NCBI GenBank assembly: GCA_043814965.1
Contig: JBDRJN010000033.1
Span: 1,379 to 65,378, forward strand
Reading direction: 5' to 3'
DNA from: Candidatus Omnitrophota bacterium
GTDB lineage: Bacteria > Omnitrophota > Gorgyraeia > Gorgyraeales > Gorgyraeaceae
Length of the DNA: 64,000 nucleotides
Made by a program: the position numbers and the translations under genes. Within the stretch, counting starts at the first letter, position 1. The number at the start of each line of letters is the position of its first letter. Shown here one piece after another: positions 2,868-7,589 of the stretch. The notes under the pieces were generated by a model. That model searched no databases. It saw only the letters and a program-made list of their open reading frames with translations, and was not told the DNA's origin.

Positions 2868-3920
2868 ATGGCAATACTAATTACCAGTATGATATGGGTG
2901 TCTGTAGTCCTTGCGGTGGCTTTGGTCTTTTCAAGAAAGATCAAGGATAAATTAGTAAAAGACAACGAGGATAAGATCAATGTGCTTCGCTCAGAATGGA
3001 GTGATACTCTTTCTAGGAATACACAATTGATCCTGGACCAGATGAATGAGGCCAGGAAGCTTTCTCAAGATGTAAATAGCTCTATAAATAACAGGCTGGA
3101 TAATGCTACAAAGACTTTTGGCGATGTACAGAAGAGCCTTGGTTATCTCGGAGAGAGGGCCAAGGAGATATATGAGATAGGAAAGGATATATCCAGCTTA
3201 CAGGAGATCCTGAGGGCTCCAAAGATGAGAGGCGGGCTGGGGGAGCTCTTTTTGGAGAACCTATTAGGAGAGATATTGCCTCATAAAGACCTTTATGAGC
3301 TTCAGTATAATTTTAAAAGCGGGGAAAGGGTGGATGCGGTCATAAAGATAGGCAATAAGCTAGTAAGCGTTGATTCAAAGTTCCCTCTTGAGAGTTTCAG
3401 GAGGTTTATTGATGCAAAGGAAGAAGAGGATAAAAAGCGTTTTAAAAGGGAATTTGTAAAAGCAGTAAAGGACCATATAGATTCGATAGCTGCTAAATAT
3501 ATCCTTCCGGATGAAAATACCTATGATTTTGCATTGATGTATATACCTGCTGAAAATGTCTATTATGAGGCTATCATCAAAGATGATAATTTTGCAGATG
3601 GAAATTCTATTTTCTCGCAGGCTATATCCAAGAAAGTGATACCAGTCTCACCAAATAGTTTTTACGCGTATCTACAGGTCATAATCCTGGGTATCAGGGG
3701 CCTTCGCATAGAAAAAGATACTCAAGCTGTCATAAAGATGCTGGGGGCCTTAAAAGTGAACTTCTATAAATTCAGAGAGGAATTTAGTATACTAGGTTCG
3801 CATATAGAGAAGATAAAGTCCAGCTATGATAGGAGCGATAAGAGGCTGGATAGATTCGAGAACAAGCTATCCTCCATAGATTCTTTTGATAAAAAGAAAG
3901 AACCAAAAGAAATAGAATGA
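2868..3920 (+). CDS. rmuC: DNA recombination protein RmuC
   Basis: N-terminal transmembrane helix, coiled-coil region, and the conserved RmuC block KMRGGLGELFLENLLGEILP...VDAVIKIGNKLVSVDSKFPLESF. Confidence 0.75.
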   Translation: MAILITSMIWVSVVLAVALVFSRKIKDKLVKDNEDKINVLRSEWSDTLSRNTQLILDQMNEARKLSQDVNSSINNRLDNATKTFGDVQKSLGYLGERAKEIYEIGKDISSLQEILRAPKMRGGLGELFLENLLGEILPHKDLYELQYNFKSGERVDAVIKIGNKLVSVDSKFPLESFRRFIDAKEEEDKKRFKREFVKAVKDHIDSIAAKYILPDENTYDFALMYIPAENVYYEAIIKDDNFADGNSIFSQAISKKVIPVSPNSFYAYLQVIILGIRGLRIEKDTQAVIKMLGALKVNFYKFREEFSILGSHIEKIKSSYDRSDKRLDRFENKLSSIDSFDKKKEPKEIE

Positions 3921-3977
3921 TCCCGGAGAGCGGCTCAGTTTGGCTAGAGCGTCCGCCTTTAGGCGGAAGGCTCTGAG
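3921..3977 (+). pseudogene. tRNA-like 5' fragment: acceptor and D-arm resembling tRNA-Pro, with a short hairpin in place of the anticodon arm and no T-arm
   Basis: cggagagcggctcagtttggctagagcg matches 24 of 28 positions of the tRNA-Pro 5' half at 4234. It continues as tccgcctttaggcgga (5-bp stem, 6-nt loop), which cannot be a functional anticodon loop. No T-arm follows. Confidence 0.4.
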
Positions 3978-3979
3978 TT

Positions 3980-4231
3980 ATGTTTTATACTTATGTATTG
4001 AGAAGCAGAAAAAATAATAAGATATATAAAGGGCATACCAAAGATTTACAGAATAGATTGTCACAGCATAATACTGAGAATAGTAAAAAGAAATTTAGTT
4101 GTATAAATGGACCCTGGGAATTGATGTTTTTTGAAACTTTTAATACGAGGTCTGAAGCAATGAGGTATGAAAAGTTTTTAAAAACAGGCAAAGGCCGTGA
4201 ACATATAAGGGAAAAGATAGCTGAATTATAA
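3980..4231 (+). CDS. small GIY-YIG nuclease-domain protein (UPF0213/YhbQ-like)
   Basis: MFYTYVLRSRKNNKIYKGHTKDLQNRLSQHN...PWELMFFETFNTRSEAMRYEKFLKTGKGR contains the GIY-YIG signature: Y-x-Y-V-L, Y-K-G, R-L-x-Q-H-N and a downstream Glu. Wedged between the tRNA-like fragment and tRNA-Pro. Confidence 0.8.
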   Translation: MFYTYVLRSRKNNKIYKGHTKDLQNRLSQHNTENSKKKFSCINGPWELMFFETFNTRSEAMRYEKFLKTGKGREHIREKIAEL

Positions 4232-4233
4232 GG

Positions 4234-4311
4234 CGGGGAGTAGCTCAGTTTGGCTAGAGCGCTGCGTTCGGGACGCAGAGGCCGCTGGTTCAAGTCCAGT
4301 CTCCCCGACCA
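4234..4311 (+). tRNA. tRNA-Pro (anticodon CGG)
   Basis: Manual cloverleaf: acceptor CGGGGAG/CTCCCCG, D-arm GCTC-AGTTTGGCTA-GAGC, anticodon arm CTGCG-TTCGGGA-CGCAG, T-arm GCTGG-TTCAAGT-CCAGT, discriminator A, encoded CCA. Confidence 0.8.
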
Positions 4312-4324
4312 TAAGAATAGTTGT

Positions 4325-4402
4325 GGGGAGTGGACTTGTATTTTGTTAGAGCGTCCGCCTTGGGCGGAAGGCCGCTGGTTCAAGTCCAGTCTCCCCGACC
4401 AT
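4325..4402 (+). pseudogene. tRNA-like pseudo-copy: degenerate 5' part, hairpin in place of the anticodon arm, then an exact 33-nt copy of the tRNA-Pro 3' end
   Basis: 4369-4401 (aggccgctggttcaagtccagtctccccgacca) is identical to 4279-4311 of tRNA-Pro. No D-stem can be formed. The anticodon position holds tccgc-cttgg-gcgga (5-nt loop), the same hairpin type as at 3949. Confidence 0.5.
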
Positions 4403-4436
4403 GTCAGATTTAAACTTTATTTAAGGAGATAATATT

Positions 4437-4661
4437 ATGTTAAGATCTTTAATGTGTATTGCAAAAATATTTATCATTATATGTATATTTTATATTGTAT
4501 TTCCTAAAGCAAGTTATGCGTATATTGATCCAGGTTCGGGTAGTTTTGTGATCCAGTTAGTCATAGGGGCGCTATGTGGCTTGTCTTTTTTGGTCAAAGT
4601 CTACTGGAGAAAGATCATAAGTTTCTTTAGTAATATTTTTTCAAGGGACAAAAAAAAGTAA
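4437..4661 (+). CDS. small hydrophobic membrane protein (hypothetical)
   Basis: AAGGAG ribosome-binding site 8 nt upstream. Two predicted transmembrane helices. First gene of a tightly spaced three-gene operon. Confidence 0.5.
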   Translation: MLRSLMCIAKIFIIICIFYIVFPKASYAYIDPGSGSFVIQLVIGALCGLSFLVKVYWRKIISFFSNIFSRDKKK

Positions 4662-4665
4662 AAAT

Positions 4666-6051
4666 ATGAATATTAAGAATATCCCATGTTCTTTTCGAGA
4701 TCCAAGCGGTTTTTTATTTTTAGAAGACAATATTCTTTATAGACAGGTCAATGGTTCATATAAAGAAGATTATGACTACTTGATGTCATCGGGTCTCTAT
4801 AAGGCTCTTACAGATGCTGGATTATTAATACCTCATGAAGAAGCTGATAGGAAGCATATAGGATCTGATAAAGCTTATAAAGTAATAAGGCCAGAAAAAA
4901 TACCTTTTATATCATATCCTTATGAATGGTGTTTTAGCCAATTAAAAGAAGCTGCTCTAGCTACGCTCAAGATACAAAAGATAAGCCTTCAGTTCGGTAT
5001 GTCTTTAAAGGATTGCAGTGCTTATAACATGCAATTTATAGAGAATAAACCTGTTCTTATCGATACACTTTCTTTTGAGAAATACCGCGACAAAGAGCCT
5101 TGGGCTCCCTATAGGCAGTTCTGCCAGCATTTTCTTGCTCCTTTGGCTCTAATGAGTTATAAAGATGTCAGGCTAAATCAGTTGTTACGGATCTATATAG
5201 ATGGAGTCCCTTTGGACCTAGCAAGTTCGCTGCTTCCATTCTATACTTTTTTAAACTTCCCTATATTGTCCCATATACACCTACACTCAAAGAGTCAAAA
5301 ATATTTTTCTGATAAAACAATAAAGATGAAACAATATAGCATGAGCCGCTTATCTCTTTTGGGGCTTATTGATAGTTTGGAATCAATAGTTGGCAAGCTC
5401 AGATGGCAGGTCAAACAAAGCGAATGGATCGACTATTATGAGGATACTAATTATTCCTTAGAAGCCTTGGAGCAAAAAAAAGAGATCGTGTCTGCATTTT
5501 TAGATGAAGTCAAACCGGGTGTTGTTTGGGATCTGGGCGGGAATATAGGGTTATTCAGCAGGATCGCTGGCAATAAAGGGATATATAGCATTTCTTTTGA
5601 TATGGATCCATGCGTTATCGAAAAGAGCTATAAAGAGTGCCTTAAGAATAGAGAAAAAAATATACTTCCATTGATAATAGACCTGACTAATCCCAGCCCT
5701 AGCATTGGATGGGAGAACAAAGAAAGGATGTCTCTTATAGAGCGCGGTCCTGTAGATTTGGCTCTAGCCTTAGCTTTAGTGCATCATCTTGCCATAGGCA
5801 ACAACCTCCCATTTAGTAAAATTGCAGAATTTTTCAGCAATATCTGTAAGGCCCTTATTATAGAATTCATACCAAAAAGCGATTCACAGGTTCAAAGGCT
5901 CTTATCAAGCAGAGAGGATATCTTTTTAGATTACACAAAAGAGCATTTTGAAGGAGAGTTCAGGAAGTATTTTGATATAGAAAATTCAGTAAAGATCAAA
6001 AGTTCTGAGAGAGTCTTATATCTGATGACAAAATTAGGCCCTAAAACATGA
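4666..6051 (+). CDS. two-domain protein: N-terminal domain of unknown function fused to a C-terminal class I SAM-dependent methyltransferase
   Basis: C-terminal half VWDLGGNIGLFSRIAG...IIDLTNPSP...VDLALALALVHHL matches Rossmann methyltransferase motifs I-III. The N-terminal ~250 aa (CSFRDPSGF...YPYEW...) are not assignable from sequence alone. Confidence 0.6.
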   Translation: MNIKNIPCSFRDPSGFLFLEDNILYRQVNGSYKEDYDYLMSSGLYKALTDAGLLIPHEEADRKHIGSDKAYKVIRPEKIPFISYPYEWCFSQLKEAALATLKIQKISLQFGMSLKDCSAYNMQFIENKPVLIDTLSFEKYRDKEPWAPYRQFCQHFLAPLALMSYKDVRLNQLLRIYIDGVPLDLASSLLPFYTFLNFPILSHIHLHSKSQKYFSDKTIKMKQYSMSRLSLLGLIDSLESIVGKLRWQVKQSEWIDYYEDTNYSLEALEQKKEIVSAFLDEVKPGVVWDLGGNIGLFSRIAGNKGIYSISFDMDPCVIEKSYKECLKNREKNILPLIIDLTNPSPSIGWENKERMSLIERGPVDLALALALVHHLAIGNNLPFSKIAEFFSNICKALIIEFIPKSDSQVQRLLSSREDIFLDYTKEHFEGEFRKYFDIENSVKIKSSERVLYLMTKLGPKT

Positions 6052-7589
6052 AGAAACCTATTGTAATCCACCCATTTTTATTTACCGCGTTTCCGATCCT
6101 ATTTCTTTTTTATTATAATGTAGGAGAACTTGTTTTTTTTGATATCCTGGTCCCTCTAATCGTGTTACTGTTTTTTACATTTTTGTTGATACTGGTAATC
6201 CAGATATTTATTAGGGATAATTTAAAAACAGGTATTATAGTATCTATCTTTCTAACCTTATTTTTTTCTTATGGACATATATATGATATTTTAAATAAAT
6301 TTTTTCTAACCAGGCATAGATATATAATGCCGACATGGTGTATTGTTTTTAGCTATCTCTTATATATTGTTTTTAAGACAAAGAAAAAATTATTTAATAT
6401 TACAAAAGCGTTAAATATAGCATCTTTATCTTTAATTATAATTTTTCTTATAAATATTAGTATATATGAGATCAAATCAGCTTGCAGCATGAATGCTGAT
6501 ATAAAGTTAAAAGACATGAACTCAGGGAATGGGACATCTAGCAATATAAACGACTATAGAGATATTTATTATATTATTTTAGATGCGTATGCGAGTCAGG
6601 ATACCTTAAAAGAGGTCTATAATTACGATAATCAGGAGTTTATAGACTACCTGGTTAGTAAGGGTTTTTATGTAGCGACCAAGAGCTGTAGTAATTACCC
6701 ATTTACCTATTATTCGTTAGCCTCTTTTCTAAATATGTCTTATCTCGATGATTTAGCTTATCTATCCGGAAAATGGCCAAATGATTACAGGATTTTTTAT
6801 AATCTTATACAAGATAATAAAATAGTAAGATTTCTTAAGTCAAAAAAGTATAAATTTATATGTTTTCAATCAGGCGAAGGGGCTACGGATTATTATAAAA
6901 ATGCTGATTTAAATATAAGGAAAAATACATGGTGCGGCATAAAGAGGCCGGATTTTGTTATGATCTTGGCTAAAACCACAGCGATAGGGTATTTTATTAG
7001 GCCTTTAATGGCGGATTTTGCCAGAGAATTAAGGCTTTTTGTTCTTACTGAACTTGGAGAAATATATAAGATAAAAGGCCCAAAATTTATCTTTGCCCAC
7101 ATAATCTGCCCTCATTCTCCTTATGTATTTGGCGCGGATGGGCGATCTGTTTCAATATTAGAGCCAGAGATCACTATTAAAGATGTGGAGGAAGACAGAA
7201 AAGCGTATATAAACCAGCTAATATTCCTTAATAAAAAAGTTGAAAAACTTATTGAAGATATATTATCTAGATCAGAGACTCCCCCGGTCATTATACTGCA
7301 GGGAGACCATGGGACTAGATCAACGTTTCGTTCGTTAAAAAGATTAGATATGGATAATCTTACAGAGAAAAATCTTAAAGAAAGGATGCGTATACTTAAC
7401 GCATATTATTTACCGGGAGGTGGTAAGGATCTTTTGTATCCTTCTATAACGCCGGTCAATACCTTCAGGATAATATTTAATTTTTATTTTAGTTCAAGTT
7501 TTAAATTATTGGAAGACAGGAGTTATTTCTCTATTTATAAAGGCAGTTTTTATAAATTTATTGATGTGACTGATAAAGTTAAATATTAA
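6048..7589 (+). CDS. membrane-anchored sulfatase/LtaS-like (alkaline-phosphatase superfamily) protein
   Basis: About five N-terminal transmembrane helices, then an extracytoplasmic domain with YYIILDAYAS...HIICPHSPYVF...ILQGDHGTRS, typical of LTA synthase or phosphoglycerol/phosphoethanolamine transferase sulfatase folds. ATGA overlap with the upstream gene. Confidence 0.55.
   Translation: MKKPIVIHPFLFTAFPILFLFYYNVGELVFFDILVPLIVLLFFTFLLILVIQIFIRDNLKTGIIVSIFLTLFFSYGHIYDILNKFFLTRHRYIMPTWCIVFSYLLYIVFKTKKKLFNITKALNIASLSLIIIFLINISIYEIKSACSMNADIKLKDMNSGNGTSSNINDYRDIYYIILDAYASQDTLKEVYNYDNQEFIDYLVSKGFYVATKSCSNYPFTYYSLASFLNMSYLDDLAYLSGKWPNDYRIFYNLIQDNKIVRFLKSKKYKFICFQSGEGATDYYKNADLNIRKNTWCGIKRPDFVMILAKTTAIGYFIRPLMADFARELRLFVLTELGEIYKIKGPKFIFAHIICPHSPYVFGADGRSVSILEPEITIKDVEEDRKAYINQLIFLNKKVEKLIEDILSRSETPPVIILQGDHGTRSTFRSLKRLDMDNLTEKNLKERMRILNAYYLPGGGKDLLYPSITPVNTFRIIFNFYFSSSFKLLEDRSYFSIYKGSFYKFIDVTDKVKY

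Follow-up and report, generated by a model that had tools for sequence, protein, structure and literature searches.

The window analysed here is a 64,000-nucleotide (nt) stretch of contig JBDRJN010000033.1 from a Candidatus Omnitrophota bacterium (assembly GCA_043814965.1, positions 1,379 to 65,378 of the forward strand). Near its left end, downstream of a tRNA-Pro gene, three genes follow each other on the + strand and are referred to below as the cassette: gene 1 codes for a small membrane protein, gene 2 for a protein with a putative kinase-like domain and a class I S-adenosylmethionine (SAM)-dependent methyltransferase (MTase) domain, and gene 3 for a sulfatase-fold membrane protein (Table 1). 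It is close to certain that this cassette is the Candidatus Omnitrophota copy of a NoeA/NoeB-type cassette, the type represented by noeA-noeB in Sinorhizobium meliloti and by Lani_1193-1194-1195 in Legionella anisa.

An earlier sequence-only reading of the stretch had described three tightly coupled genes; their limits proved exact. Genes 1 and 2 are 4 nt apart, and the stop codon of gene 2 overlaps the start codon of gene 3 in the sequence ATGA. They are real genes, and not chance open reading frames (ORFs), because they have many database relatives (more than 8000 for the gene 2 protein, 3881 for gene 3 and 1153 for gene 1) and because the same gene order recurs in distant phyla. Databases annotate the three products as 'hypothetical', 'SAM-dependent methyltransferase' and 'hypothetical', respectively; the small protein and the sulfatase-fold protein correspond to NCBI locus tags ABIG92_07300 and ABIG92_07310 (identical Candidatus Omnitrophota entries). 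Promoter and terminator scans gave chance-level signals only.

Table 1. Features of the cassette and of the adjoining tRNA-Pro locus (positions in the window; aa, amino acids; AF2, AlphaFold2; TM, transmembrane)
Feature	Position	Strand	Extent, basis or remark
Gene 1, small membrane protein	4437-4661	+	74 aa; ORF listing
Signal-peptide-like N-terminus	aa 1-28 of gene 1 protein		Ends A-S-Y-A
Invariant motif	aa 29-40 of gene 1 protein		Y-[IL]-D-P-G-[ST]-G-S...Q
Predicted TM helix	about aa 37-56 of gene 1 protein
Basic amphipathic tail	gene 1 protein		W-R-K-I..FF.N.FS..KKK
Gene 2, kinase-like/methyltransferase protein	4666-6051	+	461 aa; ORF listing
Atypical protein-kinase-like domain	4666-5205	+	About aa 1-180; family assignment of PMC9758233 and invariant residues
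Helical linker/insert	5206-5451	+	About aa 181-262; AF2 model
Class I SAM-dependent methyltransferase domain	5452-6051	+	About aa 263-461; Foldseek and motifs
Gene 3, sulfatase-fold membrane protein	6048-7589	+	513 aa; ORF listing
Membrane domain, five helices	6048-6512	+	aa 8-23, 30-55, 58-86, 90-110, 116-155; AF2 model
Extracytoplasmic alkaline-phosphatase/sulfatase-fold catalytic domain	6555-7589	+	aa 170-513; Foldseek, column conservation
Ribosome-binding site AAGGAG	4423-4428	+	8 nt before gene 1 ATG; read from sequence
RmuC gene	2868-3920		Upstream of cassette
5' tRNA fragment	3924-3978		Precedes GIY-YIG ORF
GIY-YIG ORF	3980-4231		Upstream of cassette
tRNA-Pro(CGG)	4234-4311		Upstream of cassette
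34-nt tRNA 3'-end repeat, first copy	4279-4312		Perfect repeat
Degenerate tRNA-like copy	4326-4395		Rfam 22 bits, below threshold 29
34-nt tRNA 3'-end repeat, second copy	4369-4402		Perfect repeat

Relationship to noeA-noeB and to the Lani_1194 family

A tblastn search of plasmids with the gene 2 protein gave matches in 65 records, 57 of them from Sinorhizobium, where the match is annotated noeA, 'nodulation protein NoeA'. NoeA is 34% identical to the gene 2 protein over residues 6-456 of 461, i.e. 98% of its length (tblastn E = 2e-63, pairwise BLASTP E = 2e-81). On the S. meliloti plasmid pSymA, the order of the operon is nodL, a 71-aa hypothetical ORF, noeA and noeB. The product of the 71-aa ORF (AYLDPGTGS...Q...YWNKI) matched the profile of the small protein with an hhalign probability of 97.5%. 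NoeB (553 aa), which passes the Pfam Sulfatase cutoff at 40.9 bits, matched the gene 3 family profile with E = 3.8e-5 along 248 columns that cover the D, T, FAHxxxPHSP (H..H) and GDHG (DH) motifs; these motifs are also covered when NoeB is aligned with the gene 3 protein of the window. The three-gene order is thus the same in S. meliloti and in the window, and all three proteins are homologous, although the relationship is a distant one (34% identity for NoeA, and detectable by profile only for NoeB). Since a small ORF lies between nodL and noeA, the operon classically given as 'nodL, noeA, noeB' omits a conserved fourth gene.

Small YLDPGTGS ORFs were located at 4754-4969 of locus L087 (S. 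meliloti pSymA, annotated hypothetical) and at 4802-4984 of locus L088 (Singulisphaera pSINAC01, unannotated). Plasmids of cultured Singulisphaera acidiphila, of a cockroach-gut deltaproteobacterium and of Gemmatirosa carry closer copies of gene 2 (48-55% identity). The gene that follows it in Singulisphaera is a RefSeq 'LTA synthase family protein' whose product is 32% identical to the gene 3 protein of the window.

A novel kinase family named after Lani_1194 of L. anisa, with NoeA as a member, was described by Krysinska et al. (2022; PMC9758233). According to these authors, the N-terminal ~190 aa of Lani_1194 form an atypical kinase-like domain with an Arg (R38) at the position of K72 of protein kinase A (PKA), without an identifiable alpha-C Glu, and with the equivalents of D166, N171 and D184 retained. 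Of about 2000 homologues, 94% have a class I MTase joined to the kinase-like domain, and of 816 neighbourhoods, 65% contained Lani_1193 and 38% Lani_1195. Lani_1195/NoeB was predicted to have an alkaline-phosphatase fold (HHpred match to EptA 5FGN at 3e-27, with MCR-1 and YejM matched also), and the Legionella proteins were treated as possible secreted effectors (PMC9758233). The gene 2 protein shares with Lani_1194 the putative kinase-like N-terminus (Arg for K72, and the D/N/D set), the class I MTase and the same two neighbours, a likeness drawn through the NoeA link and the description in that paper. The window sequence belongs to an environmental clade of much higher conservation, which keeps 54-69% identity across phyla and has the small protein in all informative loci (versus 65%; PMC9758233). 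The family of which the window cassette is a distant member is known from genetics (noeA/noeB, 1995) and from bioinformatics (2022).

As far as the work of Ardourel (1995) is related in PMC9048898 and PMC9758233, noeA and noeB are host-range nodulation genes of a nod-box operon with nodL. A natural truncation of noeA correlates with nodulation failure on some Medicago genotypes (PMC4053727). The setting differs in the window: the S. meliloti copy, borne on a symbiosis megaplasmid with nodL as a neighbour, is controlled by a nod box and gives a host-range phenotype, whereas the window copy is part of a gene array of housekeeping type in an Omnitrophota that is free-living or episymbiotic.

The 461-aa protein combines a putative kinase-like and a methyltransferase domain

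The sequence-only reading had recognized a class I SAM methyltransferase in the C-terminal half of the gene 2 protein and had left its N-terminal ~250 aa unassigned. A fold search confirmed the first point. The AlphaFold2 model of the protein (built from 59 sequences; pLDDT score 76, pTM score 0.79) gave 753 Foldseek matches in PDB at E<=0.001, which were all class I MTases and all fell on the C-terminal ~200 residues; the top ones were 1ve3, WbdD (4azt/4azs) and AzeJ, and WbdD 4ax8 was also among the matches. Conservation was scored in two alignments, one of 59 close and one of 26 divergent sequences. Motif I (W-D-L-G-G-N-I-G, with D289, G291, N293 and G295) and the acidic residue of motif II (D312) are invariant, as is the N342-P-S-P part of motif IV (D339-L-T-N342-P-S-P...G348-W349).

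As to the N-terminal part, sequence searches gave no assignment: the gene 2 protein, its methyltransferase half included, had nothing at E<=0.1 in Pfam, NCBIfam or PDB (phmmer), and no relative outside the family was found for its 262 N-terminal residues (26-sequence profile against PDB; Pfam for each member). The part nevertheless has a published assignment, to the atypical kinase-like Lani_1194/NoeA family (PMC9758233), and because it belongs there the enzyme is better read as a kinase-like protein joined to a methyltransferase than as a methyltransferase with an unknown appendage. The candidate catalytic residues are R26 (at the position of PKA K72), D116 and N121 (in the loop LKDCSAYN) and D133 (in IDTLSF, the equivalent of DFG). 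Their equation with PKA numbering rests on PMC9758233, with whose residues our independently made mapping of R26, D116, N121 and D133 agrees. All four are invariant in both the 59 close and the 26 divergent relatives; the former alignment has 83 invariant columns. D116, N121 and D133 align exactly in NoeA, the Arg of which is one position off R26 in the ungapped BLAST alignment.

In the model, the N-terminal domain has a long helix (aa 90-109), a short strand, the loop L-K115-D116-x4-N121, a beta-hairpin (aa 122-131) and the segment I-D133-T-L-S-F. The resulting D-x4-N-x11-D spacing is that of the catalytic and Mg-binding loops of protein-kinase-like enzymes, and it is the model together with these invariant residues that points to a kinase-type core. 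The linker that follows is partly of low confidence (aa 176-220) and contains the invariant residues H203, H207 and Q211. From its sequence, gene 2 is predicted to code for a soluble protein made of a kinase-like domain and a class I MTase, with both predicted sets of catalytic residues intact.

The protein is highly conserved. The best 120 of the more than 8000 relatives (in a collection clustered at 90%) are all full length and 65-69% identical to the window protein, and an exhaustive HMMER search retrieved 6272 clusters at 50% identity, 1862 of them with E<1e-30. No kinase-fold protein was found by phmmer, with PKA and APH seeds, in 1 Mb of fetched loci.

A further likeness is with WbdD of E. 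coli O9a (4azs/4azt), in which a kinase-like domain and a class I MTase are also carried by one polypeptide, which acts at the cytoplasmic face of the membrane on a lipid-linked glycan; its MTase domain came out at ranks 2, 7 and 18 of the gene 2 fold matches, over about 205 columns. There are clear differences: the order of the domains is reversed, the gene 2 protein having the kinase-like domain first, then the MTase, and ending at aa 461 without a coiled coil, and identity is only 16% and confined to the MTase domain. The marks of a WbdD-type chain terminator are missing: neither the domain order, nor the coiled coil, nor the ATP-binding cassette (ABC)-transporter O-antigen context is found. 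No wzm/wzt genes lie nearby in the window or recur as neighbours in the other loci, and the WbdA context is lacking too. Lani_1194 and Lcin_0519, the two kinase-MTase families of PMC9758233, are set apart there from known kinases, and WbdD is called no more than a remote relative of one of them, Lcin_0519.

The small protein has a single predicted membrane helix

Gene 1 has 1153 relatives of about 75 aa each. Among 116 aligned ones, residues Y27, A28, Y29, D31, P32, G33, G35, S36, Q40, G48 and W57 are 96-100% conserved; D31, G33, S36 and the Thr/Ser at position 34 reach 100%, and S69 91%. The core of this conservation is the motif Y27-A28-Y29-[LI]-D31-P32-G33-[TS]-G35-S36-x3-Q40, and K54 and the tail K-I-K..FF.N.FS are conserved as well, so that the TM helix holds an invariant Gln and a near-invariant Lys.

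The sequence-only reading took the product for a peptide with two TM helices. A signal peptide followed by a single TM helix looks likelier. The N-terminus is hydrophobic but variable and ends in (A/V)-Y-A, the residues at -3 and -1 before the motif being A/V and A, which has the form expected of a signal-peptidase-type site. Furthermore, the small proteins of an Anaerolineae clade (loci L032, L042, L072 and L078; for example L072, 5826-6005) begin only ~8 residues before the motif (MHFAPLPYLDPGSGS...), without the first hydrophobic segment, and have an acidic tail at the end. The first hydrophobic segment is therefore dispensable, and where it is present it is probably, and most simply, a cleaved signal peptide and not one arm of a two-TM hairpin. 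In line with this, SignalP gave borderline to positive results on the Legionella homologues, with cleavage sites at 18-28 (PMC9758233). The mature protein would then count ~46 aa, with the N-terminus out, the C-terminus in and one TM helix.

Fusions of the small protein to a passenger or any other domain were found neither among its 120 best relatives nor in the fetched loci. The motif stood in a single long ORF, of 478 aa at locus L077, which was rejected as a spurious high-GC read-through over a gene on the opposite strand.

The sulfatase-fold protein resembles EptA and MCR-1

For the third protein, five N-terminal membrane helices and an LtaS/sulfatase-type domain had been claimed. The helices and the sulfatase fold of this description stood in the AF2 model (pLDDT 83), which shows helices over aa 8-155, a disordered linker and then an alpha/beta domain of sulfatase fold; the LtaS label did not. 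The best Foldseek matches were full-length EptA (5fgn, 542 columns) and MCR-1 (9nww, 568 columns), followed by the catalytic domains of EptC and MCR proteins and then by choline sulfatases and arylsulfatases, with identities to EptA/MCR-1/EptC of 10-13% and TM-scores of about 0.38-0.44. An LtaS-type label was discarded: the architecture is shared, but LtaP (4uop) comes only at rank 50, behind EptA, MCR-1, EptC and many sulfatases. With EptA, MCR-1 and EptC, the gene 3 protein shares a five-helix membrane domain, a periplasmic alkaline-phosphatase-fold domain and the conserved Asp, Thr, His..His and Asp-His residues; it departs from them in its low identity, in the absence of an EptA_N match and in a sub-threshold score against Pfam Sulfatase (PF00884, 17.8 bits versus a cutoff of 25). 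In NCBIfam it had only a chance-level choline-sulfatase match.

In an alignment of 53 sequences, D179, H351, H356 and D420 are 100% conserved, position 220 is always Thr or Ser, and H421 is 98% conserved. Active-site roles were set by position and spacing, not by superposition, which makes T220 the candidate nucleophile. D179 and T220 stand 41 residues apart, as do the first metal-binding residue and the nucleophile of EptA and of LtaS. Because of these conserved D/T/H residues and of this spacing, the protein looks catalytically competent on the model, and more EptA-like than LtaS-like.

The composition of gene 3 is peculiar: its GC content (30.4%) and its GC at third codon positions (GC3, 0.284) are both the lowest of the 55 window genes, about 3-4 standard deviations (SD) below the mean. 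Its synonymous-codon score is average, and it has the amino-acid bias of a membrane protein. At two other loci (L060, 5669-10391; L074, 7367-10473), two or three tandem sulfatase-fold paralogues stand directly 3' of the kinase/MTase gene, and at L060 they are accompanied by a larger homologue, the fourth, on the upstream side, which is an indication that the outer-face step has diversified.

Carriers and neighbours

The cassette occurs in at least 589 carrier genomes (one genome scanned per species), with gene 2 identities of 54-69%. The carriers include many Chloroflexota (Anaerolineae, Dehalococcoidia), Omnitrophota, Desulfobacterota, Planctomycetota, Aminicenantes, Chlamydiota and Clostridia, members of the candidate phyla radiation (CPR; Parcubacteria, Woykebacteria), and archaea (Methanomicrobia, Methanoregulaceae, Nitrosopumilaceae, Aenigmarchaeota), methanogens and DPANN included.

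The three window proteins were used as queries against the ORFs called in 82 non-redundant loci. All 73 loci with upstream DNA have the small protein in the cassette; 71 of them have it directly 5' of the enzyme, and two have the sulfatase-fold protein between the small protein and the enzyme. A sulfatase-fold gene directly followed the enzyme gene in 34 of 71 loci (33 at -3 to +18 nt and one at +174 nt) and was found anywhere in the locus in 41 of 82. The constant core is thus the small protein plus the kinase/MTase, with the sulfatase-fold gene adjacent in about half of the loci.

Other neighbours vary from locus to locus, with a bias to glycan synthesis (NAD-dependent sugar epimerases/dehydratases, GT2, GT4, Capsule_synth, nonulosonic-acid genes, PF01663 phosphodiesterases and GlmS). 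The core pair of the Anaerolineae clade stands in a conserved setting of housekeeping genes: it is preceded by DprA, a nucleotidyltransferase-like gene and TopA, and followed by a 334-aa TM protein (without Pfam match), GreA and dGTPase; no sulfatase-fold gene adjoins the pair there. The PF01663 proteins (nucleotide pyrophosphatase/phosphodiesterase), soluble or lipoprotein-like, stand near the cassette in at least three loci (L004, 12324-13389; L050, 11985-13307; L037) and are a second type of the alkaline-phosphatase superfamily. B12-binding radical SAM genes recur near the cassette in four loci. The ORFs of 182-190 aa that precede the cassette in WOR-3 and in Desulfobacterales show no homology to one another.

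Proposed function

Modification of the envelope, whether of a lipid or of a glycan, is a plausible and, judging from the sequences, the most reasonable reading of the cassette, because the gene 3 product looks like EptA/MCR-1 with its catalytic residues intact and because the neighbours elsewhere are mostly glycan-synthesis genes. The sequence-only reading, which spoke of lipid or glycan head-group modification, retains its plausibility on these grounds; the kinase-like part, the link with noeA-noeB and the constancy of the core pair had escaped it. A NoeA/NoeB-type cassette with the envelope chemistry set out below is the overall explanation that we favour, with moderate confidence; the chemistry and the substrate themselves we infer.

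The small protein would present its YLDPG(T/S)GS motif at the outer face of the membrane, cross the membrane once and, through its basic cytoplasmic tail, keep the kinase/MTase at the inner face. There, the kinase/MTase would phosphorylate and then methylate a membrane-bound substrate, either the head group of a lipid or the end of a lipid-linked glycan, a logic modelled on the methyl-phosphate cap that WbdD places on a lipid-linked glycan. The gene 3 enzyme, with five TM helices, an outward-facing domain, a putative Thr nucleophile and putative Asp/His metal ligands, would take a phospho-substituent from a lipid donor and pass it to an outer-face acceptor, and the net product would be a decorated envelope lipid or glycan. 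A comparable assortment exists in E. coli cellulose synthesis, where BcsE, BcsF and BcsG, i.e. a soluble protein, a tiny single-pass recruiter and an alkaline-phosphatase-fold phosphoethanolamine transferase, are encoded together. BcsE is a c-di-GMP-binding protein and not a kinase/MTase; no sequence relationship between the two sets is expected, and the likeness is one of analogy.

Several observations weigh against this envelope explanation. Concerning the kinase-like domain, Foldseek with the full-length gene 2 model returned methyltransferase matches only and no kinase, hhalign of the N-domain profile against one approximate APH(3')-IIa sequence gave no signal (a single-sequence template, too weak to tell against the kinase fold), and neither the canonical His of the HxD catalytic loop nor the alpha-C Glu is present. 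In the literature searched, no demonstrated activity or substrate was found for any member of the family. Identities of 54-69% across phyla are unusual for glycan-tailoring enzymes, and such extreme conservation of gene 2 argues for a universal substrate and not for a variable glycan. In the small protein, conservation is strongest in the part predicted to face outward, which a mere cytoplasmic anchor would not need. Lastly, about half of the loci have no gene 3 near the core, so that its step may be dispensable or may have nothing to do with the core pair.

A bolder reading, which we hold to be unlikely though not idle, is that the small peptide and the kinase-like/MTase, with an optional EptA-like partner, make up a self-contained machine that installs an undescribed methyl-phospho or N-methyl-phospho-amine mark. 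The target of the mark would be a membrane component common to bacteria and archaea, such as a polyprenyl-phosphate carrier or a shared phospholipid head group, and the small peptide would be an essential catalytic or translocating subunit instead of a passive anchor. If true, this would explain after 30 years the role of NoeA/NoeB in nodulation.

A sharper form of the original head-group idea supposes a pathway for methylated phospho-amine head groups: an ethanolamine/choline-type or lipid kinase, an MTase that N-methylates phosphoethanolamine or phosphatidylethanolamine, and an EptA-like enzyme that moves the (methylated) phospho-base from lipid to an envelope acceptor. Choline and ethanolamine kinases share the kinase-like fold, PptA and EptA transfer phosphoethanolamine or phosphocholine, and gene 3 is indeed closest to phosphoethanolamine transferases. 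Amino-group methyltransferases have the signature (D/N/S)PP(Y/F/W), which N342-P-S-P of motif IV resembles, but without the aromatic residue of the canonical motif. For the MTase domain of Lani_1194, Phyre2 proposed a phosphoethanolamine N-methyltransferase template, 4krh (PMC9758233), but any class I MTase template scores well, so that this choice is not specific. Genes for a cytidylyltransferase, LicD or phosphatidylcholine synthase were found in none of the 82 loci, and a pathway of soluble metabolites leaves the obligate small membrane protein without a role. On balance this pathway appears doubtful.

Origin of the cassette

A separate question is whether the cassette is the cargo of a genomic island, recently acquired by site-specific integration at tRNA-Pro, with the duplications and the GIY-YIG gene as its marks. 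Horizontally acquired cargo at a disturbed tRNA locus was indeed what the sequence-only reading had in mind, and the spread of the family lends it something. In a neighbour-joining tree of the gene 2 family, archaea, CPR and many phyla are mixed; the window sequence pairs with one from CPR Parcubacteria, in a group with an actinomycetotal, a Nitrosopumilaceae and the two other Omnitrophota sequences. None of the window flanks is common to any of 86 loci, two other Omnitrophota included, and plasmids of Singulisphaera, S. meliloti and others carry members. The scrambled tree, the lack of common flanks and plasmid carriage are good evidence that the family as a whole has spread horizontally. A phage origin was considered and set aside, tblastn giving no match in 50,697 phage records.

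Recent insertion at the tRNA gene is another matter. The cassette does adjoin a tRNA with a perfect 34-nt 3'-end repeat, and gene 3 is AT-rich as said above. But the repeat does not flank the cassette: its two copies precede it and enclose only about 60 nt, no third copy exists downstream or anywhere in the 64 kb, and no integrase or recombinase is among the neighbouring ORFs (RmuC, GIY-YIG, rubrerythrin-like and LigA). The 5' tRNA fragment, the intact tRNA and the degenerate copy bracket the GIY-YIG ORF, not the cassette, and the repeats are better explained by the insertion of that ORF: positions 3921-4402 have the appearance of a second tRNA gene that the insertion of a GIY-YIG homing endonuclease has split or rearranged. 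The 5' fragment and the degenerate copy share an aberrant anticodon arm (GTCCGCCTT..GGCGGAAGG, with a loop of only 5-6 nt).

In composition, the two larger genes differ. Gene 2 has a GC content of 36.5% against a window mean of 39.8 +/- 2.4 (within 1.4 SD) and a codon score of 0.101 against 0.111 +/- 0.038; gene 3, AT-rich though it is, has a normal codon score. The cassette is also tightly packed in a co-directional array of 54 + strand genes, the rubrerythrin-like gene following at 29 nt. For the rmuC-rubrerythrin site, a search of metagenome_contigs gave no close relative of RmuC. Because the repeats are both upstream, an integrase is lacking and gene 2 is of ordinary composition, a recent insertion at tRNA-Pro is not supported, and the island explanation is quite unlikely; an ancient or repeated lateral acquisition is supported.

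Less probable functions

We consider it improbable that the small protein is itself the substrate of a dedicated protein-modification system, in which the EptA-like enzyme would add a phospho-form to the Thr/Ser of the outward YLDPG(T/S)GS motif, and the kinase/MTase would, alternatively or in addition, modify the cytoplasmic tail (S69, terminal lysines). Precedents exist, as EptC modifies FlgG and PptA modifies pilin. The small protein and the enzyme co-occur in 100% of the informative loci, extreme conservation sits exactly in the exposed motif, and signal peptide, motif, TM helix and basic tail follow one another in a layout like that of C-terminal sorting/processing signals. This is countered by the motif being equally invariant in the Anaerolineae clade, where no gene 3 homologue is adjacent, and by the lack of a fusion to a passenger domain among the 120 best relatives and in the loci; nor does a modified 46-aa peptide have an obvious downstream function.

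The Nod-factor-type role that has classically been proposed for NoeA/NoeB is the decoration of a secreted signal molecule, and not of the envelope of the cell itself. Such a role is very improbable here: the host-range genetics and the Medicago correlation cited above speak for it, but the window organism and most carriers (Anaerolineae, Dehalococcoidia, methanogens, CPR, DPANN) are without nod genes and plant hosts, nodABC-like genes occur in none of the 82 neighbourhoods, and an outward membrane enzyme with a membrane mini-protein fits envelope chemistry better.

Other features of the window

The co-orientation of the window is extreme, with 54 of 55 ORF-derived genes on the + strand over 64 kb, and GC skew stays positive over its first 16 kb. 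A stretch of 640 nt (2228-2867), with the riboflavin synthase-like gene on one side and rmuC on the other, has neither an ORF of at least 50 aa, whichever strand is read, nor a match to an Rfam family at the gathering threshold. It may be an unrecognised RNA or the remains of a decayed gene, ribBA being the one expected at this place.

Significance

For the window alone, these results amount to a refinement of annotation and not to a discovery; their interest comes from the breadth, the conservation and the function of the family. The cassette is very widespread and unusually conserved for envelope-tailoring genes. Two points are new with respect to the published description: the YLDPG(T/S)GS protein is the truly constant partner, with a dispensable first hydrophobic segment, and the sulfatase-fold enzyme has a complete EptA-like predicted active site. 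The family includes the rhizobial host-range genes noeA/noeB, and because the cassette is linked to culturable, tractable carriers (S. meliloti, Singulisphaera acidiphila, Thermincola), its function is directly testable.

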